A stretch of 64,000 nucleotides of DNA. Origin: an uncultured Alphaproteobacteria bacterium (GTDB lineage Bacteria > Pseudomonadota > Alphaproteobacteria > CAAHEQ01 > UBA3637). The notes under the pieces are model-generated. The model saw nothing but the letters and a program-made list of their open reading frames with translations, was not told where the DNA came from and made no database searches. The DNA lies in NCBI GenBank assembly GCA_934203105.1, contig CAKPYQ010000004.1, positions 11,336 to 75,335 of the forward strand. Direction: 5' to 3'. Positions 7,527-55,456 of the stretch are shown here, in pieces; position 1 is the first letter of the stretch; every line of letters begins with the position of its first letter. The position numbers and the translations under genes were made by a program.

Positions 7527-7538
7527 TTTTATGTTTCC

Positions 7539-37996: not shown

Positions 37997-40900
37997 AACT
38001 AAAGTTTAAAAATCAAGAGTTCCAGACTGATGCCGTGAATGCGGCTGTAGAATTGTTCAAAGGTCAAGAAAAAGCCAACATGACCTTTTCAATCGCTGAC
38101 AATTCTGCACAAGCTTCTTTCCTGCAAAATGAATTCGGTATCGGGAACAAACTGGTGTTGGATGAAGAGACAATAAACAGCAATCTTCATGCCATCCAAA
38201 AGGCTCATTCCCTGCCACAAACTGATATTGATAGTATAAAGGCCGTGCCACTTTCAATTGAGATGGAGACCGGAACCGGTAAAACTTTCGTTTATACCAA
38301 AACCATTTTAGAGCTTAACCACCGTTATGGCTTTACAAAATTCATTATTGTTGTTCCGAGTGTGGCAATCCGTGAGGGTGTTAATAAATCATTCCAGGTA
38401 ACTGAAGAATACTTCAAAAATCAATATGATGGTGTGCCATACCGGTACTTTATTTATAATTCAGCCAAACTGTCGGATGTTCGGGCGTTTGCGACTTCCA
38501 GTAATATCGAGATTATGATTATCAACATTGACGCTTTCAAAAAGGCCGAAAACATTATCAATCAAGAACAAGATAAACTGGGCGGCGAAACCGCTATGCG
38601 TTATATTCAGGATACAAATCCGGTTGTCATTATTGATGAACCGCAAAGCGTTGATAATACCGCTAAAGCCAAAGAAGCTATCGCGATGCTTAATCCGCTG
38701 TGTGTTTTGCGCTATTCCGCTACCCACCGCGAAAAACAAAACCTTGTTTATCGCTTAACGCCGGTTGATGCATATCAAATGGGATTAGTAAAACAAATTT
38801 GCGTTATTTCAAATTCGGTTATCAATGATTCAAATAAACCCTATATCGCCTTAAAAGACGTTTCAAACGCCAATGGTTTTTCGGCCAAATTGGAAATTGA
38901 TGTGGAAGACGATAATGCCCATATTACCCGTAAGGTAATAACAGTTAAACCGGACGATGATCTGTTTATTAAATCCGGCCATCGCAAAATTTATGAAGGC
39001 TATGTTGTTTCAGGTATTGATTGCACCAAAGGCTTTGAAGGCGTTGAGTTTGCTAATTCGGAGTATGTTGCCCTTGGAAAATCTATCGGAAGCGTTGATG
39101 AAAAAGTATTAAAACGTGCACAAATTTATCAGACCATTAAAACACATCTTGATAAAGAATTACGCTACTTTGATATGGGGATTAAAGTGCTGTCCTTGTT
39201 CTTCATAGATGAGGTAAAAAAATACCGGACCGAGGATGGTGGCAAAGGTATTTATGCCCAAATGTTTGAAGAATGCTATAACGAGCTGATCAATAAGCCT
39301 AAATACGCCATTTTGAAAACAAAGTTTGATACAGACGTTAATAAGGCCCATAACGGTTACTTCTCTCAGGATAAAAAAGGGAAATATAAGGATACCAAGG
39401 GCGACACGCAGGCCGATGATGACACTTATAACACGATTATGAAAGATAAAGAATGGCTGTTGTCGTTTGAATGTCCGCTCCGCTTTATCTTCTCGCACTC
39501 GGCGTTAAAAGAAGGTTGGGATAACCCAAACGTCTTTCAGGTTTGCACGTTGATTGAGCAAAAATCTCTGTTTACCTGCCGTCAGAAGATCGGTCGTGGT
39601 TTAAGACTTTGTGTAAATCAAGACGGCGAACGCGTTGAGGATAAGAACATCAATGTTCTGCACGTGATCGCCAACGAAAGTTTTGCCGAATTTGCCGATA
39701 AGCTGCAAAAAGAAATTGAAGATGAGACCGGTGTTAAATTTGGCGTATTTGAATTGGATATGCTTGTCGGATACTCTTATGATGAAGAAGTGGAAGTTGA
39801 ACGTACAATCAGCGAAAGTGAAGCCACCGCTATTGTTGAAGATTTGCAAAAACATGGTTTAATTGATGATGGCGGTTATATTAAACCAGAAGTTAAGCCA
39901 GAAGAAATTAAAATCGAAAATATCCCGATGCCTGAACCTGTAAAAACACATGTTCAAGATATGATCAAAACTTCAAAGCCAGTGTCAGTTGCCGCGCTTG
40001 CTAATACAACATATAAAGAAACTGTTGTTGAGAAAAAGACATTCTCGTATGAGGAAGCCGCCGCAATTATGGATGAGCTAAAGGATAAAAAGGTCATTGA
40101 TAGCAAGAACAAAATTAAAGACACGATGAAAGCACAGCTCGCCGCTGGTACACTTAATCTGAGTGAGAGATGGTCAAAAGCCGCACAACGTGCAATTTTA
40201 CAATCTATGAATAAGGCTGATAACAAACTCAATATCCGAGATGCTTCAAAAGATGTAACGGTAAAACTTAATAAACGCGCGCTATTATCGCCTGAATTTA
40301 TGGAACTTTGGAATAAGATAAAGCAAAAGACCACTTATCGTGTCCAGTTTGATTTGGATAAACTAATTGCCGACAGTATCAAAGATATTCGCGAAATGCC
40401 GGAGATCACCTCGGCGCGTTTACTCAGTCAGACGGCCTCTGTTAATATTCAAAAATCCGGTGTGACGGCTCAGGCTGGTGCAATGTTTACTCAAAACATC
40501 GAAAAGAGCTATGATATTCTGCCGGATATTTTGCGTTTAATTTCTACCAAAACATTACTGAAACGCTCTACCGTGAATAAAATCATTCAGGAAAGTGGCC
40601 GGGCCGGAGACTTTTTGAAAAATCCGCAAGACTTTTACGAAAAGGTTTTGGAGATTATCCAGCGCAATCGTCATAAATTAGCTATTGATGGAATTAAGTA
40701 TATCAAATTGGCCGGCGAAGAATATGCCGTACAAGAGATTTTCTCAAGTGAAGAATTGATTGCAAACCTTGATCGGAATGCTGTCGCAGTTAAAAACAGC
40801 GTGTATGATTATGTTATTTATGACAGTAGCACGGTTGAAAAGCCATTCGCCGTGGCTTTGGACGAGGATCCTGACGTTAAGATATTCTTCAAAATTCCGA

Positions 40901-41145
40901 GCCGATTTAAGATTGACACACCGATTGGCACTTATAATCCGGACTGGGCGGTCTATTTAGAGAAAAATGGCGAGCAGAAGCTTTATTTTGTGCTTGAAAC
41001 CAAAGGAACTGATTCGTTCTATGGCCTACGTCCGGAAGAGCAACAGAAGATCCATTGCGGTGCACAGCACTTTAAGGCTCTTGATAATGTTATCTACTCC
41101 GAACAACCGGTCAGAAATTGGCAAGAATTCAAAAAGACGGTGTAG
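37993..41145 (+). CDS. res: type III restriction endonuclease Res subunit (SF2 helicase + PD-(D/E)xK nuclease)
   Basis: Helicase motif I METGTGKTF and motif II IIDEPQS are present. The C-terminal nuclease motif is YNPDWAVYLEKNGEQKLYFVLETKG. The protein is 1050 aa. Confidence 0.85.
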   Translation: MKLKFKNQEFQTDAVNAAVELFKGQEKANMTFSIADNSAQASFLQNEFGIGNKLVLDEETINSNLHAIQKAHSLPQTDIDSIKAVPLSIEMETGTGKTFVYTKTILELNHRYGFTKFIIVVPSVAIREGVNKSFQVTEEYFKNQYDGVPYRYFIYNSAKLSDVRAFATSSNIEIMIINIDAFKKAENIINQEQDKLGGETAMRYIQDTNPVVIIDEPQSVDNTAKAKEAIAMLNPLCVLRYSATHREKQNLVYRLTPVDAYQMGLVKQICVISNSVINDSNKPYIALKDVSNANGFSAKLEIDVEDDNAHITRKVITVKPDDDLFIKSGHRKIYEGYVVSGIDCTKGFEGVEFANSEYVALGKSIGSVDEKVLKRAQIYQTIKTHLDKELRYFDMGIKVLSLFFIDEVKKYRTEDGGKGIYAQMFEECYNELINKPKYAILKTKFDTDVNKAHNGYFSQDKKGKYKDTKGDTQADDDTYNTIMKDKEWLLSFECPLRFIFSHSALKEGWDNPNVFQVCTLIEQKSLFTCRQKIGRGLRLCVNQDGERVEDKNINVLHVIANESFAEFADKLQKEIEDETGVKFGVFELDMLVGYSYDEEVEVERTISESEATAIVEDLQKHGLIDDGGYIKPEVKPEEIKIENIPMPEPVKTHVQDMIKTSKPVSVAALANTTYKETVVEKKTFSYEEAAAIMDELKDKKVIDSKNKIKDTMKAQLAAGTLNLSERWSKAAQRAILQSMNKADNKLNIRDASKDVTVKLNKRALLSPEFMELWNKIKQKTTYRVQFDLDKLIADSIKDIREMPEITSARLLSQTASVNIQKSGVTAQAGAMFTQNIEKSYDILPDILRLISTKTLLKRSTVNKIIQESGRAGDFLKNPQDFYEKVLEIIQRNRHKLAIDGIKYIKLAGEEYAVQEIFSSEELIANLDRNAVAVKNSVYDYVIYDSSTVEKPFAVALDEDPDVKIFFKIPSRFKIDTPIGTYNPDWAVYLEKNGEQKLYFVLETKGTDSFYGLRPEEQQKIHCGAQHFKALDNVIYSEQPVRNWQEFKKTV

Positions 41146-41148: not shown

Positions 41149-43251
41149 ATGGAAGAGCCTAAACCGTATCGATTCCCGACCGAATTTGCCGCCATGGTTG
41201 AAGCCAGGCGATTGGCAAGTTTTCGAGATGATGATAATTTACTCGCAGTTTATGCCTCTTCTAAAATTAAAGTGTTACCTTATCAGATAGCGGCGGCACG
41301 TTTTGCCTTACGTTCCACTTTGTTAAAGGGCTGTATTCTGTGTGACGAAGGCTCTCTCGGTAAAACTTACGAAGCACTCCTTGTGCTGGCACAACGTTGG
41401 TACGAGGGTAAAAAACATATTTTGGTGGTTTTACCACAAAACTTGATGAGCCAATGGCAACAAAAACTGGATGAAGAATTTACTTTGCCGGTCATCAAAT
41501 GGGCGGAATACAACAATGAAAGCAAAGGAATTTGTCTTGTTACGTATGATGATGTGGTTCGCGAGGCTGAGAAATTCAAAGCAATTCGTTGGGATTTGGC
41601 GGTATTTGATGAGGCTGACGTATTGTTCAAACCGGATAACAAATCGGTTATAACCCTTAAAGAGGCAGTTGGCGATGCTTTCAAACTGCTCTTAACGCCA
41701 ACGCCGATCACCATAAGTATTATGGATATCTATGGTCTTATTCACTTTATTGATGAAAGTGTTTTGCCGGATCCTGACAGCTTTTATCGCCGGTATTTTA
41801 GAAAGCCCGAGAATTATCCCGAATTATCAAATTGGGTATCGCAATTTGCTTTTCGTACACTTAAAAGACGAGCAAGCCAGTATGTGAACTTTACCAAACG
41901 TCTGCCGGTTGTTCTGAACTATACGCCGAAAGATGACGAGAAAAAAATATTTGATTTAACCGAAAAATACCTAAATTTAGCTGAAAAACAGGCTTATCCG
42001 CAAATGGATAACTATCAGTTAACCTTGATGTTCTACCACATTTTGGCCTCATCACCGCAGGCTTTTGCCAATATGCTGTCGGCTCCGATTGAACGGGCTT
42101 CGTCTGATGAACGCATTATTTTGCAGACAATGCAAAAAATGGCTTTGGAAATTCCCGTTTCTGCTAAAATGGATGCGTTATTAAAGGCTCTTAAAACAAC
42201 CTTTGCTCATTTAAAATCACGCAAAGAAGTGCAAAAAAACATTATTTTTGTTGATAACCTGACAACTTTATCCGTTTTATCAGAGTTATTAAAGGAACAT
42301 TATTCGATTATAAAACACACAGATGATAATGCTTTGAACATTTTTAGAGAAGATAAAAATATTCAAATTCTTATCACAAACGATGCAACTGCCAAAGGCT
42401 TAGACATAGAATACTGTCCGGTTGTCGTGAACTATGATTTACTTTATAATGCCGTTGAGATGGAACAACGAATTTGTCGTTGCCACCGCCAAGGACAACA
42501 ATCCGATGTGTTGGTTATCAATTTGCTCAGTCAGGAAAGTATGTCTGATGTGCGTATTTTGGAATTGATTAACAAACGAACTTTACAATTTCAGGGTGTT
42601 TTCGGCATGTCGGACGATATTGTCGGCTATTTTGATGAAACTTTGGAGGCTGTTTTACAAAAACGCCGAACCTTGCCCGATATTCAAAGGGATTTTGCAC
42701 AGAATTTAGAGATAAATAAAGATGCCAACGCACAAGTTGTTTCGGATGCCGAAAGTGTTTTATTTACGACATTTACAAAGGATGTGGCCGAAAAAATACA
42801 AGTTTCACCGCAGTATATTCAAGAACAAGCCGAATTTCTCAATCGGGACTTATGGGAGGTTGTGAAGTTTTATTTTGAAAAGCATCATCCTCAATATATT
42901 ATTGATGACATCAATCAAACATTAACTTTACCGGATGATTGTGAACAACCGCATATGTTCTATTCTTGGACTGGGACAAGAAACACACTTTATACGGGAA
43001 AACGTCAGTATGGTATGGCCAAAGATTTTAAACCTGCAAGCGGAAGAATTACCTTAACTTCTATTTTAGCCAAGGGAATTTTTAGTGAAATTGAATGTGC
43101 TACAGAGGCTGAAATAAACCTTGAAATAGGTACTGAACCTTGCCAAATTAGTATGTACAATGTTGAATTACGCCGAAAAGGAAAGTTCCTTAAATGTTAT
43201 GATGTTTTAACCGGTAAGACGAGAGATGGCAAGATTTTAACACAAGAATAA
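41149..43251 (+). CDS. SNF2-family helicase-like protein
   Basis: Motif I is CDEGSLGKT, motif II is LAVFDEAD, motif III-like is LLLTPTPI and motif VI is QRICRCHRQGQ. It lies immediately downstream of res. Confidence 0.7.
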   Translation: MEEPKPYRFPTEFAAMVEARRLASFRDDDNLLAVYASSKIKVLPYQIAAARFALRSTLLKGCILCDEGSLGKTYEALLVLAQRWYEGKKHILVVLPQNLMSQWQQKLDEEFTLPVIKWAEYNNESKGICLVTYDDVVREAEKFKAIRWDLAVFDEADVLFKPDNKSVITLKEAVGDAFKLLLTPTPITISIMDIYGLIHFIDESVLPDPDSFYRRYFRKPENYPELSNWVSQFAFRTLKRRASQYVNFTKRLPVVLNYTPKDDEKKIFDLTEKYLNLAEKQAYPQMDNYQLTLMFYHILASSPQAFANMLSAPIERASSDERIILQTMQKMALEIPVSAKMDALLKALKTTFAHLKSRKEVQKNIIFVDNLTTLSVLSELLKEHYSIIKHTDDNALNIFREDKNIQILITNDATAKGLDIEYCPVVVNYDLLYNAVEMEQRICRCHRQGQQSDVLVINLLSQESMSDVRILELINKRTLQFQGVFGMSDDIVGYFDETLEAVLQKRRTLPDIQRDFAQNLEINKDANAQVVSDAESVLFTTFTKDVAEKIQVSPQYIQEQAEFLNRDLWEVVKFYFEKHHPQYIIDDINQTLTLPDDCEQPHMFYSWTGTRNTLYTGKRQYGMAKDFKPASGRITLTSILAKGIFSEIECATEAEINLEIGTEPCQISMYNVELRRKGKFLKCYDVLTGKTRDGKILTQE

Positions 43252-43759: not shown

Positions 43760-44323
43760 TTACTTTATTTTAGAAAAAACATTGATATCTGTTAATTTCT
43801 GTAAACATTCACTGAAACGACCATTACGCTCAATTCCTTCCAATTGATAGCCCAAATTTTGAGCTACTTTTACAGAGTTTAAATTATCAACATCATTTCT
43901 AATAACTAAGCGTTCTGCTCCAGAACTAAAAAGCATATTTTCTAGAGCTCGTACAGCTTCTTGCATATAACCTTTTTTACAAGCGTCTTTTTTAAGCCAA
44001 TAAGCTAATTCAAATTGTTTGTCGACCGTTCGTCCTTTTTTTATTACAGCAACTCCACCTAAAAATTCTTTATCTGTTTTTTTGTAAATTGCATACTCAA
44101 AACGTTCTCCAGCTTTCCATGCACGATCTGCATCTAAAGCAAAATTATAATCATCTTCTGCCCGGCGGGTTATTTCAGGCATTGCCCAATCCATCCAAGG
44201 AAGTATATGTTCTCTATTGGCATCAACGACAGAAAACATTTTTATTGCAAATTCAAAACTCTTTTCTGGTTTTTCTAATAAAAGACGTTCCGTTTCAAGT
44301 GATGGTAAGAAATCTATAGCCAT
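43760..44323 (-). CDS. GNAT family N-acetyltransferase (RimJ/RimL-like)
   Basis: It is 187 aa. The GNAT motif A region is ...CKKGYMQEAVRAL. Confidence 0.65.
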   Translation of the reverse strand: MAIDFLPSLETERLLLEKPEKSFEFAIKMFSVVDANREHILPWMDWAMPEITRRAEDDYNFALDADRAWKAGERFEYAIYKKTDKEFLGGVAVIKKGRTVDKQFELAYWLKKDACKKGYMQEAVRALENMLFSSGAERLVIRNDVDNLNSVKVAQNLGYQLEGIERNGRFSECLQKLTDINVFSKIK

Positions 44324-44471
44324 AATTTTGTCCTTTCTAACAAGTTATCAGAATGACAGTTTAGCAAAGGAAAGTTTAAAAAGCAATCATTTTTTTGATA
44401 AATTATAAAAATATATTGACTTTTGGTAAAAGAGTATATACACTAGACTAGTTTTCAACAATGTAGAAAGG

Positions 44472-45677
44472 ATGCATATGTTTAATCCAGAAGATCATTA
44501 TCTATCAAGAGGGCCTGTCCATCAATTTGGAGATGCTAGTGAATGCGACTATAAAATTAAAAATGTAGGTTGGACGTTGGGAAACTTTTGTCCTTACCAT
44601 TGTCGTCACTGCTATTCTCTTTCGGCAAGAAGGGCCGGTGCGAATATGACTAAAGAAATCGTGGATAGAATTATTAATCAACTATATAAAAATGGTATTG
44701 AAACCATTAATGTTGGAGGAAATGAACCTATTTTTACTAACGGGTCTAAACTTGAAGATACGCTTTTGCCCTACATAATCAATAAAGTGACTGATTTGGG
44801 AATGGAAATAGGCGTCACGACAAGCGGAATAACGTTATTACAATTATACAAGAATTTTCCAGAAGAATTTAAAAAAGTAAACGATTTTGATATAAGTTTA
44901 GACTCCCCTTTTGAGGAAGAACATAATGAGAATAGAGGAGCAAAACTTTATAACTCAGCAATGGAATGTTTAAAAATATGCCAAGATACAGGAAAACCTC
45001 ACGGAATTATTATGACAGGCATGAAATGGAACTTTACGAAACTCCATATAAATGCAATGCTGGAGTTATGTAAAAGAACAAATTCTAACATAAGAATTAA
45101 TATTTTTAAACCAATGTCTAAAATACATTATAAAAATATTATTCTGCCTGATCAGCTATTTGAAGGTTTTGATTATTTAATTAAAAATTGCGAAACTTTG
45201 GATATGAGTGAGTCTATTTTAAAAGCAGCATCTCAAACCCCAAATAAAAGTAGATGTCCTTGCGGGCGAACAAGTTTTAGAATTCATTCTATAACACCTG
45301 ATGGCAAAGTTTATGTTTCACCATGTGTATATATGCATGACTATAAATCCTCTCTTGATTTGTTAACAAATGAATTAAGTGATATTCTTGCTTCAGATGT
45401 TTTTAAAGTATTTAGACAAAGAAATGCTCATCCGGAAAAAATAAAAGGATGCTCCGACTGTGAGTTGTTGGATATTTGTGGTGGAGGTTGTGCTGCACGT
45501 TCTTATCTGCATCATGCGATTCAAACAGGAGAAAAATCTTTTATAGAAAAAGATTTTTATTGTCCTAAAGAGCATAAAAGCAGTCAACATTTTTCTAAGA
45601 ATTACAATATAGCAAAAGAAGAAAAACTTGTTCATATTGATTATTTGTGTACATGGATAGGGAAACCGAAGGTATGA
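44472..45677 (+). CDS. radical SAM enzyme with C-terminal SPASM-like cysteine cluster
   Basis: The Cx3Cx2C motif CPYHCRHCYS lies at residues ~40-48. The glycine-rich SAM region VGGNEP is present. The C-terminal cluster is CSDCELLDICGGGCAARSY. Confidence 0.8.
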   Translation: MHMFNPEDHYLSRGPVHQFGDASECDYKIKNVGWTLGNFCPYHCRHCYSLSARRAGANMTKEIVDRIINQLYKNGIETINVGGNEPIFTNGSKLEDTLLPYIINKVTDLGMEIGVTTSGITLLQLYKNFPEEFKKVNDFDISLDSPFEEEHNENRGAKLYNSAMECLKICQDTGKPHGIIMTGMKWNFTKLHINAMLELCKRTNSNIRINIFKPMSKIHYKNIILPDQLFEGFDYLIKNCETLDMSESILKAASQTPNKSRCPCGRTSFRIHSITPDGKVYVSPCVYMHDYKSSLDLLTNELSDILASDVFKVFRQRNAHPEKIKGCSDCELLDICGGGCAARSYLHHAIQTGEKSFIEKDFYCPKEHKSSQHFSKNYNIAKEEKLVHIDYLCTWIGKPKV

Positions 45678-47431
45678 CAACATCTGTTTTTACTTCTGAT
45701 GATATGAATGATAATACTTCCGACTTATTATTTTGGGGAAAGTCTATTTTCCAGATAGAAAAAAGTATTCGAGCTTCTTGGCGAAAAAAAAATTTATATT
45801 CTTTTTCATCAGATAAACGGAAAAAATGTTTTTTGATTGAACCTCCTCCACCAACGTTAGTAAAAAAATTATATGTGGGGCATTTGTATAATCATTGTCC
45901 TATAGATATTATAGCTCGATATAAAAGAATGCGAGGATACAATGTTTTTTATCCTGTCGGTTTTGACACAACAGGACTTCCAACAAAAGATGCTTTTGAA
46001 CAATGGTTAAACATACAAGAGAATAAAAAACTAGGAGACCGCAATTCCTTTGATATATTTTTAGATGAACGTTCTCAGATGTATTTAAATGTTTTTTCTG
46101 ATTTAGGATTAAGCTTAAATCCTAAGTATAAGTATGAAACATCAAGTAAAGCAATGAGAGATTTTACTAAGAATGTTTTTGAAAAATTATTTAAAGAAAA
46201 TTCTATCTATTTTCATGAAGGTCATTGGTTTCTTAAAGTCTCGGATATAAATAAAGAAGTATCTGCTTTTTTTCAAGATGTTAAGTTTGTTCCACACTTT
46301 AAGTCCAACCAATTTCATAATCATATACGTTCCATGAATCATGATTGGCTTTTTTCAAAAGAAAGAGATTATGGCATTAAAATACCTGTAAAATACTGTT
46401 CTAAATGCAAAAAACCACACTTACTATCTCAATCACACTGTTGTGAAGGTGCAGAGTTTAATATAGAAAAAAATGTCTTTAGTGTATGGTTTATGGCAGC
46501 TTTAATTCCATGGTTTCTTTCCTTCGTAGTTAGAGGCGATAAAAATTTTCAATTATACGATATTCGAGCAAATGGGGCACATAATATTTGTTCTTGGGAT
46601 TTTTATACTGCAATACTTGGATATGTTACATTTAAAAAAGTTCCATGGAAATCAATTGTGGTTTCTGGAATCGTAAAACTAACGGATGAAGAATGGAATG
46701 ATGGAAGAGAAGAATCACCAATGAATCCGCCATATTTAATAAGAAAGTACGGTGCCGATGCGATTCGTTTCTGGTGTTCTAGTGCCAGCACAGGGAAAGA
46801 TGTTGTTTTTTCTGAAAAGAAAATAAAAGAAGGACACCATTTATTATATAAACTTCTCAATGCAGGCATTTTAGTAAAAAAAATAAACCAAAAATCAAAA
46901 AATAGGAACATATCAATTGTACATAATGTTTTTGATGCCTGGATTATAGATGAATATAATAAAATGCTAAATTCTTTTATTCAATATTTGGATGAATATG
47001 ATTTTAATGCAGCACTAAAAAAAATCAATTATTTTTTTAAGATTTTTTCGGGTATATATTTAGAAATAGTAAAAAAACGTTTATATGAAAAAAAACAATT
47101 AAACAACGTTTACTTTGATGTATTTTTTAATCTTTTAAAATGCTATTCTCCTTTTTTCCCTCATATAACAGATTATATTTATCAAAATGTATTTAAACGA
47201 TTTTATCCTCAAAAAAGTAGTATTCACCTTTTTGAAATAGAATATATGAAAACTACAAACAAAAATAATGATAACTCTTTTGTTGAAGAGCTTCTTTTGA
47301 AATTAGAAAAAATGAAAAGGACGCATTCCAATACTTTAGAATTAGATAATAAATATGCTGATATTGCAAATAAAGTTTTAGATGATATAAAAATGTTATC
47401 AGCTGTTGAACAATTGTTATTTGTGCAATAA
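45674..47431 (+). CDS. class Ia aminoacyl-tRNA synthetase paralog (MetRS/LeuRS-like) with degenerate HIGH and KMSKS motifs
   Basis: PPPPTLVKKLYVGHLYNHCPIDIIARYKRMRGYNVFYPVGFDTTGLPTKD aligns with class Ia P-x-x-x-G-x-LH[LM]GH...RYQRM-G-x-V...GWDxxGLP, but HIGH reads YVGH. A Cys knuckle CSKCKK...HCCEG resembles the MetRS zinc knuckle. At the KMSKS position the sequence is REESPMNP, followed by the conserved YGADAIRFW. The start at 45674 is an ATGA overlap with the upstream gene. Confidence 0.7.
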   Translation: MTTSVFTSDDMNDNTSDLLFWGKSIFQIEKSIRASWRKKNLYSFSSDKRKKCFLIEPPPPTLVKKLYVGHLYNHCPIDIIARYKRMRGYNVFYPVGFDTTGLPTKDAFEQWLNIQENKKLGDRNSFDIFLDERSQMYLNVFSDLGLSLNPKYKYETSSKAMRDFTKNVFEKLFKENSIYFHEGHWFLKVSDINKEVSAFFQDVKFVPHFKSNQFHNHIRSMNHDWLFSKERDYGIKIPVKYCSKCKKPHLLSQSHCCEGAEFNIEKNVFSVWFMAALIPWFLSFVVRGDKNFQLYDIRANGAHNICSWDFYTAILGYVTFKKVPWKSIVVSGIVKLTDEEWNDGREESPMNPPYLIRKYGADAIRFWCSSASTGKDVVFSEKKIKEGHHLLYKLLNAGILVKKINQKSKNRNISIVHNVFDAWIIDEYNKMLNSFIQYLDEYDFNAALKKINYFFKIFSGIYLEIVKKRLYEKKQLNNVYFDVFFNLLKCYSPFFPHITDYIYQNVFKRFYPQKSSIHLFEIEYMKTTNKNNDNSFVEELLLKLEKMKRTHSNTLELDNKYADIANKVLDDIKMLSAVEQLLFVQ

Positions 47432-47445
47432 TATAAGGAGAGTAT

Positions 47446-48360
47446 ATGACAAATTCTATAAGAGAAAGTTCTAAAAACATTTGTTGTTATCGTCCAATTT
47501 CTGGAAATAAGACACGTTTAATCTGGAATATAACAGGATTTTGTAATTTAAACTGTCGGCACTGTTTTATAAAAAAATATCCAGCATCTGAAAGAAAAGA
47601 AAGAGAGCTTTCGTTTTCTAGATGTTTAGAACTAATCAGAGAATTTCCTAATGTTAAAATTGGAAAAGTTATGTTAACAGGAGGAGAACCTTTTTCTCGT
47701 TCTGACCTACCCGATATTATAACGGCCATAAAGGAAATTGATAAAAATATAATCATTGATATCACAACAAATTTAACATATTTGAGTGATGATATTATTG
47801 CTCAATTAAAGCGAGTTGGAATTGATGAAATTACAACTTCTTTAGATGGAGATGAAGAAGTACATGATTTTATCCGTCAATCAAAGGGAAATTTTAAAAT
47901 CGTAACACAAAATATAAAAAAATTACGTCAAGCTAATATATTGGTGGATGTTGTCTGTGTCGTTCAACGTTCTAATTTTAGAATTCTGGAAAAAATTATT
48001 GCTATTGCAGAAGAATTAGATATTACTTCATTGACATTTTCTGATTTAATCGTTCCAGAAGGAATAGATTATTCATTAGAAATATTAAGTGCGTCTGAAA
48101 AAACGGAAATAATTAAATATTTAGACGGTATCAGAAAAAGCAGATTAAATATTTCAGATAAAATACCTGTCAGAATGGTTGGTTTTGATTCTGCAAAAAA
48201 GATAAGTCATCCTTGTTTAATGAGTAATATTTTAACTATAACGAACGAAAATAAATTGTGTCGTTGTTTGTTGTCAGATTCTGCTGATGGTGAAAATATA
48301 GCGAATGTTTCTTTGCAAGAAGCTATAAAAAAGATAAAACCAGTAAATTGCTTTAAATAA
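47446..48360 (+). CDS. radical SAM enzyme (304 aa)
   Basis: The Cx3Cx2C motif is NITGFCNLNCRHCF. The GG motif is VMLTGGEPF. There is no SPASM tail. Confidence 0.8.
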   Translation: MTNSIRESSKNICCYRPISGNKTRLIWNITGFCNLNCRHCFIKKYPASERKERELSFSRCLELIREFPNVKIGKVMLTGGEPFSRSDLPDIITAIKEIDKNIIIDITTNLTYLSDDIIAQLKRVGIDEITTSLDGDEEVHDFIRQSKGNFKIVTQNIKKLRQANILVDVVCVVQRSNFRILEKIIAIAEELDITSLTFSDLIVPEGIDYSLEILSASEKTEIIKYLDGIRKSRLNISDKIPVRMVGFDSAKKISHPCLMSNILTITNENKLCRCLLSDSADGENIANVSLQEAIKKIKPVNCFK

Positions 48361-48374
48361 AAAAGGATAAATAC

Positions 48375-49472
48375 ATGTTAAAAGAGTTAGATTTACATAT
48401 AACTAACCGATGCACATCAAAGTGTCAGTACTGTTCATTTTCTTCTGGTCGGTTAAAATTAGACGAATTGAGTTTCGATGAAATAAAACAGCAAATAGAA
48501 GATGCTATTTCTCTCGGTTGTGAACATGTTCACATAACAGGTGGAGAACCATTACTGAGAGATGATGTTTTTGATATTATAGAATTTGTAATATCAAAAA
48601 AACTTAAGGCTAGATTACAAACCAACGGAACATTACTAGATACAGAAAAAATCAAACGATTACAAAATATTGGTTTAAAATCAATCATGATTAGCCTTGA
48701 TTCTTACCTTGAAAATATTCATGATCAGACAAGAGGAAAAGGAACTTATAAAACAACACTATCTGCAATTAAATCTATTTTAAAAACAGATATTTCATTA
48801 CGAGTCAATTCTGTTATTACAAAAGTTAATTATCAGAGTATTTATAAAACGATAAAGTTTCTTTATGATATGGGAATAAAAAATTATTCTGCTTTTTATT
48901 TTTCTCCTATTGGTGTGGGACGATCTCGTATAGAGGATTGGCTTTCTCCAATAGAATATAAAAACTTTTGGAACGAACTAAATCAAAAAATAAAAGAACA
49001 AAAATATTTGTTTCCAGATATGAATATAGTTATTGAAAAAGGTTATGCTGATTGGAATGAAGCACGAAAAATAGATGTGAGCAATTTTTCTGGATGCGGT
49101 GGTGGATGTATGAATTCATACGAAAAAAGAGAATATCTTATTTTAAGGAGTGATGGAAATGTTTATCCATGTATTATGGCAATCGACGGCATTCCTTTAG
49201 GAAATGTGAGACAAACGTCTCTAAAAGATATTCATGAGAACTCTTCTGTGTGGTCAAACATGTGCCTTAAAAATGATCCAGAATGTATTGATTGTGAGCA
49301 TTTTAAACTTTGTGGAGAAGGTTGTAGATTTTATCCCGATATACCTGATACAAAAAAAATGCTTCACGATCATAGATGCATAAAGGGACAAATTGTTCCT
49401 CTATGTCCCATTATGAAGTATAATATGTTAAATGAACGACTAGGAGGGTCTTCAGATGATGTAATGGAGTAA
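48375..49472 (+). CDS. radical SAM enzyme with SPASM-like C-terminal domain
   Basis: The Cx3Cx2C motif is ITNRCTSKCQYCSF and the GG motif is HITGGEPL. The C-terminal Cys clusters are CGGGCMNSY and CIDCEHFKLCGEGCRFY. Confidence 0.8.
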   Translation: MLKELDLHITNRCTSKCQYCSFSSGRLKLDELSFDEIKQQIEDAISLGCEHVHITGGEPLLRDDVFDIIEFVISKKLKARLQTNGTLLDTEKIKRLQNIGLKSIMISLDSYLENIHDQTRGKGTYKTTLSAIKSILKTDISLRVNSVITKVNYQSIYKTIKFLYDMGIKNYSAFYFSPIGVGRSRIEDWLSPIEYKNFWNELNQKIKEQKYLFPDMNIVIEKGYADWNEARKIDVSNFSGCGGGCMNSYEKREYLILRSDGNVYPCIMAIDGIPLGNVRQTSLKDIHENSSVWSNMCLKNDPECIDCEHFKLCGEGCRFYPDIPDTKKMLHDHRCIKGQIVPLCPIMKYNMLNERLGGSSDDVME

Positions 49473-50450
49473 TTATCTACAGTTACATTGTCTTTCCCCG
49501 AGTATAAAACTAATTGTATTTTGAGACGCGATTCTTCTTCGTAATGGTTGTGCTAACCCTTTTAATAAAGTTACTTCATCTTGATAAGTTGTAACATCTT
49601 TTGGGGTTGTTGTCGCTAGTTTTGCGGTATAGTTATACGGCATATCTGTTCCCCATATTAGATTATCGGGTAAAACTTCGTATAAATATCTTAAAACGTT
49701 TAATGGATCATCTTTATTAATTTTAAATGTTGCTTTATGGATATCTTTATTTTTTAAAAAATCGGCATATAGACCCAAAAAAGGACATAAATCAACATAT
49801 AAATTTGGTAATGGATGATTAGAGAGCATTTCAAAGAAAGGTTTATTAAATCGTCCGATGTGGGCTGCACAAATTCTCAGGTGCGGGATGCTTTTCGCCA
49901 ATTTATAAATATTAACAGCCGACGTCATATCATCTTTTCCAGAATGAATCAATAATGGCAAATTATTGTCTTCAAGGAATTGAATTAATTTTGGATGTTT
50001 CAAAATATCTAAAGCGGTGTGCTGATCGCAAAAGGTATGATATTTTAAACCATATATTTCATGATGTTTATTTAATGCTTTTAAATTTTCTACTTGTTCA
50101 GAAACATTAGCATTTAAACTAAAACCCATAAAAGGTAAGATTCGTTCTGTTCCAAAATGTTCTATCTGTTCAACTAAATTTCTGTTTTCAATTTCAAACG
50201 GCAACTTACATAAATTTGACGGCCTAAAATTAAAACCATTGAGGTAACTAGTTATATCATAAAAAAGAGTATTTGGAAAAGGAAAAGTGATAGCAAAATC
50301 AATTTCATTTTCTTTAATAGTTTTTTCTAAATTTACAACATTCTGATTGGTTGGATTTAAGCCATTTACAGTATTATAAAAATCCATTCCGCTACAATGC
50401 GTATGACAGTCTATCAGTTTTTCGCTTAAATCATCTATTTTCTTTTTCAT
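49473..50450 (-). CDS. metal-dependent TIM-barrel amidohydrolase family protein
   Basis: The N-terminal HxH-type motif is IDCHTHC. Later conserved His/Asp residues are present (AAHIGRF, WGTDMPY). The protein is 325 aa. Confidence 0.55.
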   Translation of the reverse strand: MKKKIDDLSEKLIDCHTHCSGMDFYNTVNGLNPTNQNVVNLEKTIKENEIDFAITFPFPNTLFYDITSYLNGFNFRPSNLCKLPFEIENRNLVEQIEHFGTERILPFMGFSLNANVSEQVENLKALNKHHEIYGLKYHTFCDQHTALDILKHPKLIQFLEDNNLPLLIHSGKDDMTSAVNIYKLAKSIPHLRICAAHIGRFNKPFFEMLSNHPLPNLYVDLCPFLGLYADFLKNKDIHKATFKINKDDPLNVLRYLYEVLPDNLIWGTDMPYNYTAKLATTTPKDVTTYQDEVTLLKGLAQPLRRRIASQNTISFILGERQCNCR

Positions 50451-50511
50451 TTTATTGCACCTTATGATTAAAACTAAAACAATGAGATTTTAACACAAAA
50501 ATTAAGAAAAG

Positions 50512-50991
50512 TCAATAGATATATCCATTGTCTATTTTTATAAAAGATTCATCTGCAATTGGTTCTTCAAACTGTTTTTTCAGTTCATCGAAATGTTTTA
50601 AATTGTGAATTGCAATGGCTCCACTTCTTTTAGAAATTCTTTCTTTTAAAACAGCATCCGGAGCATAAATATAATGAATAATCGGGAAAAAGCCTAACTC
50701 AAGTGCTTTTTTTATGGCTTCTTTCCGACTTTCCGTTGTCCAAAACCCCATATCAAAAATAACAGATTTATTTTGTTTGGCATATTCAGAGGCTTTTTCC
50801 CATAGCAGAGCGATTGTTTTTGAAAAGCACTCATCCCAATTTTCTTCATATTCTGTTTTATCGAATAATTCCATACAGTACTGGTCTGGATTTAAATGAA
50901 TAGCTCCCGTTTCTTTTGAAAGTTTTTGGGAATAAGTTGTTTTTCCAGCCCCTAAAAATCCACAAATAAGGTAACACACGGGAACTGTCAT
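50512..50991 (-). CDS. P-loop kinase-like NTPase (AAA_33/zeta-toxin-like fold)
   Basis: Walker A is GFLGAGKTT. The protein is 159 aa. Confidence 0.55.
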   Translation of the reverse strand: MTVPVCYLICGFLGAGKTTYSQKLSKETGAIHLNPDQYCMELFDKTEYEENWDECFSKTIALLWEKASEYAKQNKSVIFDMGFWTTESRKEAIKKALELGFFPIIHYIYAPDAVLKERISKRSGAIAIHNLKHFDELKKQFEEPIADESFIKIDNGYIY

Positions 50992-51404
50992 TTATGAATC
51001 TCCCATTGTTTTACAATTTCTTTTAAAAATGCATCCAATTTGGGATCATCTTTTGTTGTCCAATCATAGACCACATGTTCCGAACTTAAAGTAATTTTTG
51101 GTTTGCTTTGCAATTCAACTTTATAATTTAGTTGCAAGTATCTTTCGGTTTTATCTTCATTCATAAACTCCTCGGAAATACCAATCAGTTCCTTTTTGTT
51201 ATGTGTGATATCAATACCGATTTCTTCTTTTATTTCACGAATTAAAGCATTTTCTATAGTTTCAGATGCCTCCACACCACCACCAGGGAACTCCCAACAG
51301 TTAGGCAAAAAATCATCTGTTTCAGATCGCTTGATAATCAAAAAACGACCTTTATGAATAATCATCCCACAAACACATAATTTAGTTTTTTGTGCCATTT
51401 TCAT
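50988..51404 (-). CDS. NUDIX hydrolase
   Basis: The Nudix box is GGGVEASETIENALIREIKEEIGI (GX5EX7REUXEEXGU). Confidence 0.8.
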   Translation of the reverse strand: MKMAQKTKLCVCGMIIHKGRFLIIKRSETDDFLPNCWEFPGGGVEASETIENALIREIKEEIGIDITHNKKELIGISEEFMNEDKTERYLQLNYKVELQSKPKITLSSEHVVYDWTTKDDPKLDAFLKEIVKQWEIHK

Positions 51405-51838
51405 CCCCTTTCCGAATAATATTTTTTAGTCCAAATACTTTGCAAAGCCTGCAATGTGGTTGGAGCGATTTTTTCAAATGGTAAATTATCCTTTCTAAAA
51501 AATTGCATATCGGCACATTTAGACGGTTCTAGATTTTGCAATTCACCTTTAAAATCTTTTATAAGGAAATACAAATCCATCCGTTTGTTTTCACCGACTA
51601 GATTATGAACGATGTGAGCAAACACAACCTCTTTAACATCTACATCTATGCCCAGTTCTTCTTTGGCTTCTCGGACAACGGCTTGAGACGCGGTTTCATT
51701 TTCTTCTATATGACCGGCCGGCAATACCCACCACCCATCTTTAAAATAACCGTCCGTCCGATAGAACAACAAGATTTTATTGTCTTGCTCCAAAATAAAA
51801 CTGACAGTGGCATTAAACTTGATCCGTTCAGACATCAC
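51401..51838 (-). CDS. NUDIX hydrolase
   Basis: The Nudix box is AGHIEENETASQAVVREAKEELGI. Confidence 0.8.
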   Translation of the reverse strand: MMSERIKFNATVSFILEQDNKILLFYRTDGYFKDGWWVLPAGHIEENETASQAVVREAKEELGIDVDVKEVVFAHIVHNLVGENKRMDLYFLIKDFKGELQNLEPSKCADMQFFRKDNLPFEKIAPTTLQALQSIWTKKYYSERG

Positions 51839-51889
51839 TTCCTCCGTTTAGACTAAATTATAAAACATCTTAAAAAGAAAGTCAAAAAA

Positions 51890-52435
51890 TTAAATGCTTT
51901 CTATCATTTCAACAGGTTTGTTTTCTTTTTTTTTTGCTTTCTCTAATAAAATGGGCAAGTATTTCTTTTCGTATTCATGACTCCACCGTAAAAGACGAAA
52001 AAGCGTAATCGGATTTTCACGGTGTTTTTTAGGCTCAATATGAAACATTCGGCGGAGAGAACGTTTTATTATTCGATACTGCCTTAGTCGGCGGGGCGGT
52101 TTTAAAATTATGACTTTATCGGCTTGTTCAATAACGGGTATAATCCAATCTTGAAAATAGACCCCTTCTAAAATCCAATTTTTATTTTCAGATAAAATTT
52201 GATTTAACAGAGCCAATCTTTCTTCTTTGGGACGACGCAGATTAAATGCATTCGGACGGTTAATCCACTTAACCTCATCCAAATCAAAACAAGGTATATT
52301 TAATTCTTGCGATAATTTTTTGGCATAAGTGGTTTTGCCACTCCCCGGTCCACCTGAAATATAAATTTTAGGCATAAACTTCCTCCCATTTATAGCCTTG
52401 GATTTTGCGTTCCAAGTTCCAATCCGTTTGCCCAT
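51890..52435 (-). CDS. P-loop NTPase, adenylate-kinase/topology-modulation-protein-like
   Basis: Walker A is ISGGPGSGKTTYAKKL at the N-terminus. The protein is 181 aa. A paralog lies at 57840..58343. Confidence 0.6.
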   Translation of the reverse strand: MGKRIGTWNAKSKAINGRKFMPKIYISGGPGSGKTTYAKKLSQELNIPCFDLDEVKWINRPNAFNLRRPKEERLALLNQILSENKNWILEGVYFQDWIIPVIEQADKVIILKPPRRLRQYRIIKRSLRRMFHIEPKKHRENPITLFRLLRWSHEYEKKYLPILLEKAKKKENKPVEMIESI

Positions 52436-52518
52436 GTCTGAGTAAATAAATCACCCGAAATCCTCCTCAGTTCTGGAAATAAGAATAACAAAAAAATCAA
52501 CCGATTTCAAGTTTATTC

Positions 52519-53010
52519 TTACCTATAATTCTTTTTCAAAACGGATGATTGGAATATCAAACTTCCAAAATTTTTTTCAGGAATATCAGATTTTATCATT
52601 CCCTGTTTCTGATAGAACCCGATTGAAGGTCCATCCTTGATTGTCCACACAATTAACTTATTATAGCCGTCTTGTTTTTTTAATCGGCAAATTTCTTCCA
52701 TTAAAGCGCTTCCGACACCTTGTTTTTGAAAGTCAGGATGAACATAAAGCATTTGAATTTCAACAGCTCTCTCTTCCGGATATTCAAGAGTTAAAAATCC
52801 AACAACGTGATTTTCTGTTTCGGCAACATAATATTCAACTTCTTTAATACGGTTGGCTGTTCGTTCTATAACCGCTTCATCAAAAGGCATATTATCCAGA
52901 AAGTCATTAGGTAAAAATCCTCGATAGCAGGCTTGGTAAGCATGATAGTGAGCAGACTTAATATCTCTGGCATCATTTGGTATCGCTTTACGAATTTTTA
53001 TTTGCATCAT
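52519..53010 (-). CDS. GNAT family N-acetyltransferase
   Basis: The acetyl-CoA motif is QKQGVGSALMEEI. The protein is 163 aa. Confidence 0.75.
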   Translation of the reverse strand: MMQIKIRKAIPNDARDIKSAHYHAYQACYRGFLPNDFLDNMPFDEAVIERTANRIKEVEYYVAETENHVVGFLTLEYPEERAVEIQMLYVHPDFQKQGVGSALMEEICRLKKQDGYNKLIVWTIKDGPSIGFYQKQGMIKSDIPEKNFGSLIFQSSVLKKNYR

Positions 53011-53872
53011 TTACTTCCTTTCTGATAATGATGTGAGGAAACCATTGTTCTTGAAATTGAACTTGTTTTTCTATCTCAGCATCAGAAAGATTCATTCCTT
53101 TTGGAACAACAATCAATTTGTCATCATCGTCATCTGTTCTGTGAATAATTGCAATACATTCTCCTGTGAATTTTTCTTGAGGTTCTTGAACACCTAAAAC
53201 ATAGGCATCTAATTCTTCGCCATCCCCAGAAATTGTATCTGGGATGTATCCATAATTTACAGGGTACATAAAACCATGTTTAGGGTGTTTAGAGCCCATA
53301 GGTCTATCCATTATAACAGATACTGCTCGCCCCAGATAATCCCTATTTGAACCATTTTGTTTTTGAGTAGTTTTGTTCACAAACTCCTTAATCTCTTTGG
53401 CGGTTTCTTCTGGTGTTTGATTGTCGTTATTGATAATAAAATCGGAATATGGACGATTCTGATACCCTTCCGCATACATTTGTCGAATGCGATTTCTTTC
53501 CCAATCGTCCAACTCACGCGTGCCACGATTTTTTAAACATTCATCTAAACTGGGTGCAAGGGTAATGTTCAAAAACTTGGTCTCATTATCCGCCAAGGCG
53601 TTCCAATCTTGATAAGTATTATCGGCAATCGGATAAGCAAAAATAACTGTTTCATACTCACGCAATTCTTTAAGCGTTTGCAATTTCTGATTCAATCGTT
53701 TATGACGTTCCCGCCAACCTTGTTGCAGGGATAATCCCAGTTTTTTCTGTTCCGCATCACTCATTAATTCATCCACTTCAATAAAAGTGGCTTTCGGTAA
53801 TAAGTTCACCAAAATCTTAGAAACCGTCGTTTTTCCGGAATTCATTGGCCCGTTGATGTTGAGTATTAGCAT
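52988..53872 (-). CDS. fusion protein: chloramphenicol-phosphotransferase-like P-loop kinase + family I inorganic pyrophosphatase-like domain
   Basis: The N-terminus MLILNINGPMNSGKTTVSKIL resembles CPT MIILNGGSSAGKS. The C-terminus DRPMGSKHPKHGFMYPVNYGYIPDTISGDGEELDAYVLG...DDDKLIVVP aligns with E. coli Ppa [32 protein letters not shown]...EDAKLVAVP. Confidence 0.65.
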   Translation of the reverse strand: MLILNINGPMNSGKTTVSKILVNLLPKATFIEVDELMSDAEQKKLGLSLQQGWRERHKRLNQKLQTLKELREYETVIFAYPIADNTYQDWNALADNETKFLNITLAPSLDECLKNRGTRELDDWERNRIRQMYAEGYQNRPYSDFIINNDNQTPEETAKEIKEFVNKTTQKQNGSNRDYLGRAVSVIMDRPMGSKHPKHGFMYPVNYGYIPDTISGDGEELDAYVLGVQEPQEKFTGECIAIIHRTDDDDDKLIVVPKGMNLSDAEIEKQVQFQEQWFPHIIIRKEVNDANKNS

Positions 53873-53888
53873 AAGAACCTTTAAAATT

Positions 53889-54428
53889 TCATAAATCTGT
53901 TTTTAGTTTTGAAAAAACTAATACATCATGATAATCTCCCAAAAGATATTCTAGTCCACGTAAATTAGCATCTTGATAAAAATTCAATCTTTGAGGAACT
54001 CGTACAGAAGATATATTATCAGCATTACACCATATTTCGAAACGATGATATCCTTCAGAAAAAACTGCTTTTTCTAACAATTTAATCGCCTTAGAAACAA
54101 AACCCTTTCCAGTTTCTGTCTTATTTAACCAGTAACAACCTTCCGCAACATGACCATCATCTTTTATTTTGATACCAACCCTACCAACGATATAGCCTTT
54201 CAAGTTAAAAATGAAATAAAAGAACATGGTTCCAGCATTCCATTTTTGTTGAAAACCTTCTATTTCTGCAACTGCTTTTTCCATTGTTGATATTCCAGAA
54301 GTGTGAGGTAGAAATTTAAATTCTTCTTGATTTTCTGAAACAATTTTAGAAAATTCTTCAGCTTTTGAAATATCTGTAGCTGCTTTTAATGTAAAATCAC
54401 TATGTTCAATAATTGTTGGAAAAGACAT
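53889..54428 (-). CDS. GNAT family N-acetyltransferase (RimL-like)
   Basis: The motif is NKTETGKGFVSKAI. The protein is 179 aa. Confidence 0.7.
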   Translation of the reverse strand: MSFPTIIEHSDFTLKAATDISKAEEFSKIVSENQEEFKFLPHTSGISTMEKAVAEIEGFQQKWNAGTMFFYFIFNLKGYIVGRVGIKIKDDGHVAEGCYWLNKTETGKGFVSKAIKLLEKAVFSEGYHRFEIWCNADNISSVRVPQRLNFYQDANLRGLEYLLGDYHDVLVFSKLKTDL

Positions 54429-54515
54429 TTTATTCTCCTTTATAAAAAATGAGAATTTTTGCTTAGATTTAGTAATTATACAAAATTACATTTAATAATG
54501 CAATTAAAATCTTCA

Positions 54516-55220: not shown

Positions 55221-55224
55221 AATA

Positions 55225-55389: not shown

Positions 55390-55456
55390 AAGATTTTGTT
55401 TGCATTCTCTGGTATAATTTGATACTATACTAGATAGTAAAATTGAAAGGGGCGTT

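Follow-up and report, generated by a model that had tools for sequence, protein, structure and literature searches.

What part can an aminoacyl-tRNA synthetase (aaRS)-like protein with degenerate catalytic motifs play in an operon with three radical S-adenosylmethionine (SAM) enzymes? The question is raised by a low-GC island in 64,000 nucleotides of DNA from an uncultured alphaproteobacterium (contig CAKPYQ010000004.1 of assembly GCA_934203105.1), the whole of which is referred to here as the window. We characterized the four genes of this operon, rSAM-A, B, rSAM-C and rSAM-D (A to D below), together with the genes that accompany them. The finding is real and is unexplained by any curated family or described system. 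As a tentative answer, which we consider possible, we propose that the genes make and tolerate a valine-bearing, nucleoside-type small molecule, with B transferring valine from Val-tRNA and a neighboring acetyltransferase (GNAT) providing self-protection. The open reading frames (ORFs) of the operon are as follows.

44472..45677, plus strand: rSAM-A, 401 aa; Radical_SAM with full SPASM domain; member of a widespread uncharacterised family
45674..47431, plus strand: B, a pseudo-synthetase derived from valyl-tRNA synthetase (ValRS), 585 aa; without the CP1 editing domain; YVGH and WNDGR motifs; valine pocket, Zn knuckle and anticodon-binding domain kept
47446..48360, plus strand: rSAM-C, 304 aa; Radical_SAM, no SPASM; four conserved C-terminal Cys
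48375..49472, plus strand: rSAM-D, 365 aa; Radical_SAM with full SPASM domain

An initial annotation, made from the sequence alone, had described four tightly coupled ORFs in an AT-rich setting, and both their coordinates and their base composition bear this out. The ATG of B overlaps the stop codon of A as ATGA, 14 bp separate B from C and C from D, and GC content is 0.26-0.31 across the operon, whereas the first 35 kb of the window have 0.42-0.45. Ribosome-binding-site spacing and independent gene calls indicate that A likely starts at the ATG at 44478 (399 aa), and an alternative GTG at 45647 would extend B to 594 aa. Pfam agreed with the radical SAM and SPASM assignments made initially, giving Radical_SAM (6e-16) plus SPASM for A, Radical_SAM (4e-27) for C, and Radical_SAM (1e-31) plus SPASM for D; B matched tRNA-synt_1 (1e-37) and Anticodon_1 (1.7e-21). 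Lengths of 304-585 aa at 26-31% GC, strong hidden Markov model scores and ratios of non-synonymous to synonymous substitution (dN/dS) of 0.04-0.16 at a dS of ~1-1.5 argue that these ORFs did not arise by chance.

The synthetase-like protein B

The best curated match of B was the NCBIfam valS model PRK13208 (1.7e-99, 334 bits vs. a 738-bit cutoff), an ~800-aa model whose named relatives are mostly archaeal, and a second valS model, TIGR00422, gave 249 bits, also below its cutoff of 612. Judged from its sequence, B is a descendant of an archaeal-type valS. Models of MetRS and LeuRS scored far below those of ValRS, which rules out the MetRS/LeuRS-like identity first given to B, and the Cys knuckle once likened to that of MetRS is the ValRS one, with its four Zn-knuckle cysteines kept.

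To place its motifs, B was aligned with authentic ValRS sequences (alignment A1, 7 sequences; alignment A3, 56 sequences) and with ValRS of Thermus thermophilus (1GAX). The HIGH motif, already noted as degenerate, reads YVGH in both lineages that carry the protein, and its first His is conserved in at least 90% of the A3 sequences. The KMSKS motif had been reported absent, and the 1GAX alignment now places K528-M-S-K531-S opposite W341-N-D-G344-R of B, within an acidic loop, DEEWNDGREES, common to both lineages. Five residues on the ATP side are replaced.

1GAX His50 (first His of HIGH): Y67 in B
1GAX Asp490 (Asp of the GxD motif): H303 in B
1GAX His518 (conserved His before the KMSKS loop): S331 in B
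1GAX Lys528 (KMSKS): W341 in B
1GAX Lys531 (KMSKS): G344 in B

Pro41/Pro42, Asp81, Trp456 and Trp495 of 1GAX, which we take to be valine-pocket residues and which are reportedly those described by Fukai et al. in 2000, are kept in B as P58/P59, D98, W272 and W308, all of them invariant columns in A3. Ile491 of 1GAX aligns to N304, a substitution also found in a genuine ValRS (P0010). The CP1 editing domain, whose deletion had been missed initially, is gone: a single gap after residue 182 stands where 54 ValRS sequences have a median of 184 residues. Of 176 ValRS columns conserved to at least 85%, 79 are kept in B, 47 carry a substitution and 50 are absent, and essentially all of the missing ones are explained by this single 184-residue deletion. 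Retention is 33/48 in residues 1-182, 22/47 in residues 183-330, the second half of the catalytic part, and 11/16 in residues 331-400. In the anticodon-binding domain (residues 401-530), 12 of the 13 highly conserved ValRS columns are retained, which, with the Anticodon_1 match, upholds the earlier view that a tRNA-binding domain is still present.

The AlphaFold2 model of B was confident (predicted local distance difference test score, pLDDT, 86.7; predicted template-modeling score, pTM, 0.88), and within the chain confidence is low only in the replaced KMSKS loop. Using Foldseek, the model gave TM-scores of 0.82 to ValRS 1GAX and 0.82-0.83 to IleRS; sequence identity to ValRS is only 25-31%. 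Residues 331-400, the remodelled KMSKS segment, are the most constrained part of B (89% identity between the two lineages, dN/dS 0.037). Since the most constrained segment is the one that carries the remodelled loop, the altered active-site loop is a selected feature. The degenerate motifs, the loss of CP1 and the sub-cutoff valS scores rule out a housekeeping ValRS or an active duplicate of one. A decaying pseudogene is ruled out by a dN/dS of 0.16 (0.037 in the remodelled loop) and by the confident full-length fold. Sequence and model together indicate that B is almost certainly a folded protein that is unable to adenylate valine or to edit, and that has kept an amino-acid pocket and a tRNA-recognition domain.

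Several known proteins resemble B in part. Canonical ValRS (1GAX) shares its Rossmann fold, Zn knuckle, valine-pocket residues, stem-contact (SC) fold and helical anticodon-binding domain, but has the 184-residue CP1, HIGH, the GxD Asp, His518 and both KMSKS lysines, all of which B has lost. LeuRS of Mycoplasma mobile (PDB 3ZIU), a structural match of the B model, is a class Ia enzyme with a natural loss of CP1; however, it is active in translation, was solved with leucyl sulfamoyladenosine (Leu-AMS) in the active site and, unlike B, has intact catalytic motifs. SbzA, an IleRS-like class Ia protein, moves Ile from Ile-tRNA onto altemicidin, producing an IleRS inhibitor, and a GNAT is encoded in its operon (PMC6331615; PMC12945691). 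Like SbzA, B is a class Ia aaRS paralog, with a class I aaRS fold and a tRNA-binding domain, found inside an operon with tailoring enzymes and a GNAT and not as a housekeeping copy. SbzA provides a precedent for the reaction proposed here in that its donor is a pre-charged aminoacyl-tRNA, its acceptor sits in the aminoacylation site and its product mimics an aminoacyl-adenylate. In contrast to B, which is ValRS-derived and has neither CP1 nor KMSKS (YVGH/WNDGR), SbzA is full length and retains an editing domain, near-intact HYGH/AMSKA motifs and residual charging. Radical SAM enzymes are not described for the sbz cluster in the literature consulted. AcmF, an AlaRS-like protein, forms ascamycin, an aminoacyl nucleoside sulfamate, from Ala-tRNA (PMC12945691). 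AcmF is thus another aaRS-like protein that brings an amino acid from aminoacyl-tRNA to a nucleoside analogue, but it belongs to class II and its pathway context and chemistry (a sulfamate nucleoside) are unrelated. Cyclodipeptide synthases have a class I (Ic) aaRS-like Rossmann fold and aminoacyl-tRNA substrates, and they lack the ATP-binding HIGH and KMSKS motifs. They differ from B in their TyrRS/TrpRS-like lineage, in having no anticodon-binding domain, in a ping-pong chemistry that leads to cyclodipeptides, and in their much smaller size.

A retained valine pocket combined with lost catalytic residues could also describe a decoy, sensor or immunity protein that binds a valyl-adenylate (Val-AMP) mimic or uncharged tRNA(Val) and so shields ValRS or regulates the pathway. 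A classic route to self-resistance is an additional aaRS copy within a biosynthetic cluster, as in the mupirocin-resistant IleRS and the agrocin-84 LeuRS AgnB2; AgnB2 (PDB 5ah5) is among the structural matches of B, and SbzA itself was first identified as a resistance gene. However, a resistance copy must charge tRNA, which B cannot do, and HIGH and KMSKS help to bind the adenylate, so a Val-AMP mimic would bind poorly. Moreover, a stoichiometric decoy would be costly, and the replacement loop, being acidic and strongly conserved, has the look of a new functional site. We consider such a role quite improbable.

The six-gene cassette and its surroundings

The operon had been regarded as a four-gene unit. 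The operon is real, but the conserved unit is larger. Its flanking features in the window are listed below.

43760..44323, minus strand: GNAT of RimJ/RimL/MccE type, 187 aa; Acetyltransf_3; divergent from the operon; conserved module member
44324..44471, no strand: divergent intergenic region between GNAT and rSAM-A, 148 bp; presumed to bear promoters
49473..50450, minus strand: Amidohydro_2-family metal-dependent hydrolase or decarboxylase, 325 aa; convergent with D; conserved module member
52988..53872, minus strand: P-loop kinase fused to a truncated pyrophosphatase-like domain, 294 aa; candidate accessory gene outside the conserved six

The GNAT gene adjoins the operon in 13/13 recovered loci, and the Amidohydro_2 gene (~325 aa) is present in every locus that reaches far enough. 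The conserved unit consists of six genes, GNAT, A, B, C, D and Amidohydro_2, and measures ~6.7 kb. When a collection of 5.8 billion proteins was searched with B, short forms made up two clusters among the best 120 matches, the window protein and P0002, which is 73% identical to B and occurs on ~26 contigs from human-gut-type metagenomes; the remaining matches among the best 120 were ValRS of ~800 aa with 25-31% identity. For rSAM-C, too, only two protein clusters were found in this collection. No further short form of B was detected in GTDB species representatives (two scans), viral contigs or JGI metagenomes, which yielded ordinary ValRS (20-26% identity) or nothing, and the matches of a plasmid scan were ordinary valS or ileS. 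With 13 loci in two lineages, the association is not peculiar to one genome.

Beyond the six genes, the flanks differ between loci. In the window, the low-GC island opens with a tRNA-Pro(TGG) gene (34852-34928). In the P0002 lineage, the cassette lies in a ~10-kb island that has a tRNA-Lys(CTT) gene on one side and a P4-type integrase on the other, adjoining ispH and aas. These different tRNA-associated flanks indicate that the same cassette was placed at different sites, and it is horizontally acquired. Between the two lineages (dS ~1-1.5), dN/dS was 0.049 for GNAT, 0.04 for A, 0.156 for B, 0.104 for C, 0.079 for D and 0.089 for Amidohydro_2. The six-gene cassette is kept by purifying selection. 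Some copies of the P0002 lineage are damaged. A deletion in two loci (L001, ~7376-7600; L009, ~3726-3860) takes out promoter-proximal DNA between the genes as well as the opening 26-31 codons of rSAM-A, rSAM-D is truncated in another (L006, 11248-12108), and an IS1595 transposase and a methyltransferase gene are inserted between GNAT and rSAM-A in a fourth (L003, 1436-3227). Strain-level damage of this kind is as expected of an accessory trait.

The stop codon of D, ending at 49472, abuts that of the convergent Amidohydro_2 gene, starting at 49473, with zero spacer and no terminator-like hairpin, and overlapping transcripts are therefore expected; the corresponding gap is 4 bp in the P0002 lineage. 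A consensus promoter scan was uninformative (38 matches vs. 38.1 expected), with none above chance in the 148-bp divergent region, and a search upstream for a regulatory RNA or T-box gave no Rfam match even at E<=1.

Upstream of the cassette in the window lies a complete Type III restriction-modification (R-M) system, with Mod at 35420-37246 (PADLOC 9e-196) and Res at 37993-41145 (2e-297; RE_endonuc domain at the C-terminus); a 247-aa ORF without an assigned function stands between them at 37253-37996. Next come a DrmD-like SNF2 helicase (41149-43251, 1e-79) and, closing the block at 43725, a coiled-coil ORF of 118 aa. These R-M and SNF2 genes are ruled out as part of the module, as they are fragmented or deleted in related loci where the cassette is intact. 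In one locus of the window's own lineage (L011, P0001 lineage), a cysS region stands in place of the R-M block and the nearest part of the downstream kinase/NUDIX block is retained. In the window, that downstream block (49500-59500) is a dense run of small "house-cleaning" genes, with five P-loop kinases (50512, 51890, 52988, 55457, 57840), three NUDIX hydrolases (50988, 51401, 58498), two further GNATs (52519, 53889), ASCH proteins at 55457 (a fusion) and 59038, and an alpha/beta hydrolase at 56472. The initial annotation was right that kinases and NUDIX genes lie next door in the window, but they are mostly absent in the second lineage and do not belong to the core; the kinase/NUDIX/GNAT/ASCH block (49.5-59.5 kb) is ruled out on this ground. 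At the distal end of the island (59535-62545) lies a gene for a PcfJ-like-domain protein of 744 aa and, after it, an ORF of 259 aa without a family match. PcfJ-like proteins are typical of conjugative elements.

This setting, with a Type III R-M system and an SNF2 helicase as neighbors, would fit a defense island, and with it a second explanation in which the radical chemistry is directed at tRNA. Here, B would be a non-catalytic tRNA(Val)-recognition subunit that presents the tRNA or its esterified valine to the radical SAM enzymes; a tRNA nucleoside would be modified or the valine made non-canonical, with altered decoding, tRNA protection or tRNA inactivation as the outcome. The anticodon-binding domain is the best-retained part of B (12/13 columns), and the ATGA overlap and the 14-bp gaps point to partners that are translated together. 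No RNA-binding domain was found in A, C or D with Pfam, and a separate recognition subunit makes sense for enzymes that have none of their own. Loss of CP1, in turn, removes a hydrolytic editing site. Nevertheless, this explanation leaves the conserved valine pocket, the selected active-site loop and the genomic context of the A family (below) unexplained, and we hold it to be unlikely. The version in which B holds tRNA(Val) while its valine is remodelled in place, by radical chemistry, into a non-canonical amino acid, or while the tRNA itself receives a hypermodification or an inactivating lesion, is unlikely in our estimate; if true, it would amount to a new class of tRNA-dependent radical SAM system on a mobile island.

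The radical SAM enzymes and the relatives of A

The CX3CX2C motif is conserved in both lineages for all three enzymes (A, C40/C44/C47; C, C33/C37/C40; D, C13/C17/C20). A and D match both Pfam SPASM and TIGR04085, and their Cys sets, including CX2CX5CX3C, are conserved. In rSAM-C, the C-terminal cysteines C257, C272, C274 and C302 are conserved and possibly bind a twitch-like auxiliary cluster. No curated NCBIfam cutoff for MoaA, PqqE, NirJ/AhbD, MftC, viperin or the named peptide maturases was reached by A, C or D. The best sub-cutoff scores were 67 bits for A (MftC, cutoff 265), 109 bits for C (TIGR04053, cutoff 395) and 147 bits for D (AhbD, cutoff 500); for D, NirJ2 and TIGR04053 followed AhbD, all far below their cutoffs, and its PDB matches were SkfB, BlsE and MoaA. 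A known cofactor-synthesizing radical SAM enzyme or viperin is ruled out as the identity of any of the three.

The SPASM domains of A and D, and the nearest fold neighbors of A (anSME, SuiB, ChlB and PqqE, which are peptide- or protein-modifying radical SAM enzymes), invite comparison with peptides that are made ribosomally and modified after translation (RiPPs). In such a system, the SPASM enzymes would modify a peptide encoded elsewhere, and B would add valine in the manner of a peptide aminoacyl-tRNA ligase (PEARL) or serve as a scaffold. The NCBIfam matches to peptide maturases, all well under cutoff, point the same way. However, the loci have no conserved small ORF: no such ORF or precursor peptide was found in their intergenic regions, nor a plausible peptide ORF in the 148-bp GNAT/rSAM-A region, and the six genes contain no RiPP recognition element (RRE), protease or transporter domains. 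A 65-aa ORF of the P0002 loci was rejected as a precursor, being lipoprotein-like and absent from the window. The peptide-maturation role suggested initially gained no support, and we rate it as highly unlikely.

Relatives of A numbered 563 at E<=1e-20, with 50-64% identity. They occur in Rickettsiales, Blastochloris, Hoeflea, Phaeobacter, Agrobacterium, Bradyrhizobium, Tistrella, Acidimicrobiales and Terriglobia; plasmid-borne relatives were found in Streptomyces clavuligerus and in an Enterococcus isolate of human origin. About ten of their neighborhoods were sampled. Recurrent partners are a B12-binding radical SAM protein (~530 aa) and a small truncated pyrophosphatase-like protein; NUDIX, deoxynucleoside kinase (dNK)/thymidylate-kinase-like, adenosine-deaminase-like, HD-associated, APH-type kinase, DegT aminotransferase and ribonucleotide reductase-like genes were also seen. 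Often, an acid-activating enzyme (a nonribosomal peptide synthetase (NRPS)-like A-T protein in Enterococcus, an Asn-synthase-like protein in Bradyrhizobium) and an exporter (MFS, MATE or EamA) are present as well. In three loci of other gut alphaproteobacteria (L014, L015 and L023, 10828-12305), a conserved HSP70/MreB-like ATPase (434-446 aa) directly follows the block of NUDIX, B12-binding radical SAM, A-like, deaminase and kinase genes. We found no literature on the product of these B12-binding radical SAM/A-type/pyrophosphatase-like clusters (loci L014-L023 and L026-L030).

The window is tied to this family by more than A. D is 34% identical over its full length to a radical SAM protein encoded beside an A-like gene in Bradyrhizobium. 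The kinase-pyrophosphatase protein of the window (Pfam SKI/AAA_18 plus Pyrophosphatase) is, over residues 178-284, 65%, 44% and 39% identical to the pyrophosphatase-like partners of A-like genes in a Rickettsiales metagenome-assembled genome, Phaeobacter and Agrobacterium, respectively, and in another protein, P0217, such a domain is fused directly to an A-like protein. Within the kinase/NUDIX block, the pyrophosphatase-like domain alone has a specific tie to the A family. It takes the form of a stand-alone protein of 110-137 aa, a radical SAM fusion (P0217) or a P-loop kinase fusion (the window), with the conserved motif DRPxG..HP..NYGFxP..GDGExLD..DK (alignment A6; loci L017, L018, L020 and L028). 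Annotation pipelines call it "inorganic diphosphatase", and it covers only part of that fold.

Nucleotide-type neighbors, the AT-rich island and the nearby Type III R-M system and DrmD-like helicase also recall viperin-like anti-phage defense, in which the radical SAM enzymes would turn a nucleotide into a poison of replication or translation and B would act as a sensor or specificity factor. A 64%-identical relative of A in other gut alphaproteobacteria likewise adjoins R-M, NUDIX, deaminase-like and nucleotide-kinase-like genes, with no exporter. Prokaryotic viperins (pVips) are radical SAM enzymes of defense islands, often near nucleotide kinases, that make modified nucleotides; rSAM-C has a CNLNCRHCF motif, and the three enzymes gave weak matches to pVip models. 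However, those matches are generic to the radical SAM core, and the NCBIfam viperin model gave 35 bits vs. a 180-bit cutoff. A and D carry SPASM domains, which viperins do not have, and no pVip system includes an aaRS-like protein. PADLOC-DB v2 recognized no system, with no match for B or Amidohydro_2, which rules out a known defense system as the identity of the cassette. Furthermore, the adjacent R-M and SNF2 genes have decayed independently of the cassette, other clusters of the A family have exporters and resemble antibiotic clusters, and no relative of B was found on a viral contig. We judge this explanation very unlikely; chemically it overlaps with the valine-transfer model, and the family thresholds are not reached. 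Among the three roles put forward initially, a nucleotide-type, viperin-like product has the most comparative support, by way of the A family, but none of the radical SAM enzymes is a viperin.

What the cassette may make

For the transfer of valine to a small molecule, the two outer genes of the cassette are informative. The GNAT matched Pfam Acetyltransf_3 (PF13302, 3e-15) and the NCBIfam RimL model (2e-10, 40.6 bits, under the 184-bit cutoff), with 2fck, MccE (3r95) and RimL (1s7k) as PDB matches. MccE and RimL N-acetylate aminoacyl-nucleotide antibiotics and thereby detoxify them (PMC4363471). In an alignment with the acetyltransferase domain of MccE (chain numbering plus 401), Leu436, Met451, Trp453, Phe466, Val493 and Trp511 of the pocket correspond to M29, M44, W46, F61, V91 and W109 of the GNAT, and the general acid Ser553 to S150, with the roles of the MccE residues (adenine-sandwiching and lining residues, general acid) taken from PMC4363471. 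The GNAT of the cassette has the Acetyltransf_3 fold, the aromatic adenine sandwich (W46, F61) and the catalytic Ser (S150), as do the C-terminal domain of MccE and RimL, and it adjoins a putative biosynthetic operon as mccE does. By this analogy, it is a candidate self-protection enzyme. It differs in being only ~20% identical to MccE (E 4e-4) and under the RimL cutoff, and it could instead be a RimL-like protein acetyltransferase. Amidohydro_2 passed its Pfam cutoff (PF04909, 6.7e-10, 39.6 bits vs. 26.4) and had no NCBIfam or PDB sequence match.

In the valine-transfer model, A, C, D and Amidohydro_2 would build or tailor a nucleoside-type acceptor scaffold. By means of its anticodon-binding domain and intact valine pocket, B would bind Val-tRNA(Val) that the housekeeping ValRS has charged, and would pass the valyl group to an acceptor seated in the remodelled AMP site. 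The product may be an aminoacyl-nucleoside or a mimic of an aminoacyl-adenylate, and the GNAT would N-acetylate any free, toxic aminoacyl-nucleotide in the producer, providing self-immunity. The transfer itself is modelled by analogy with SbzA, AcmF and cyclodipeptide synthases and on what B has kept and lost, and we infer the donor, the acceptor, the reaction, the nature of the product, the role in immunity and its use as an antibiotic or against phage. On this last choice bears the fact that compact gut versions stand beside R-M genes without exporters, while other A-family clusters have exporters.

Several observations weigh against such a model. SbzA keeps an editing domain and HYGH/AMSKA motifs, which are modelled as acceptor-binding, and B has neither; the valine-pocket roles of the residues that it keeps are presumed ones. 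The fold search of A does not separate peptide from small-molecule substrates. The pocket residues of the GNAT may be general to RimL-type enzymes, and the normal substrate of RimL is a ribosomal protein. The cassette has neither an exporter nor an obvious nucleoside-supplying gene. Its links to the A family are incomplete, as the kinase-pyrophosphatase gene and the other kinase/NUDIX genes are absent near the P0002-lineage copies, and a comparison with accessory genes of other A-family clusters gave no specific relative of the GNAT or Amidohydro_2 of the window at E<=0.01. Finally, the distribution is very narrow, and some strains have damaged copies.

On the best reading, which rests on analogy, the cassette may be filed as an aaRS-like, aminoacyl-tRNA-dependent transferase theme set in a radical SAM small-molecule pathway. 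The initial annotation was aware of no described pathway that pairs a pseudo-aaRS with three radical SAM enzymes, and our literature search for such a pairing, the NCBIfam cutoffs and the PADLOC systems gave the same answer. ValRS is not mentioned in a 2022 review of aaRS duplications and paralogs, and a ValRS paralog with a non-translational role therefore appears to be undescribed. B illustrates an evolutionary route in which the ATP motifs and editing are lost, the amino-acid pocket and the tRNA-binding domain are kept, and a replacement loop comes under strong selection. Study of the A family, for its part, exposes widespread uncharacterised clusters in Alphaproteobacteria, Streptomyces, Enterococcus plasmids and other groups. 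If B is a Val-tRNA-dependent transferase, it would be the second class Ia case after SbzA and the first to work with radical SAM enzymes, and its product would be a valine-bearing metabolite of human-gut alphaproteobacteria that has so far not been described.

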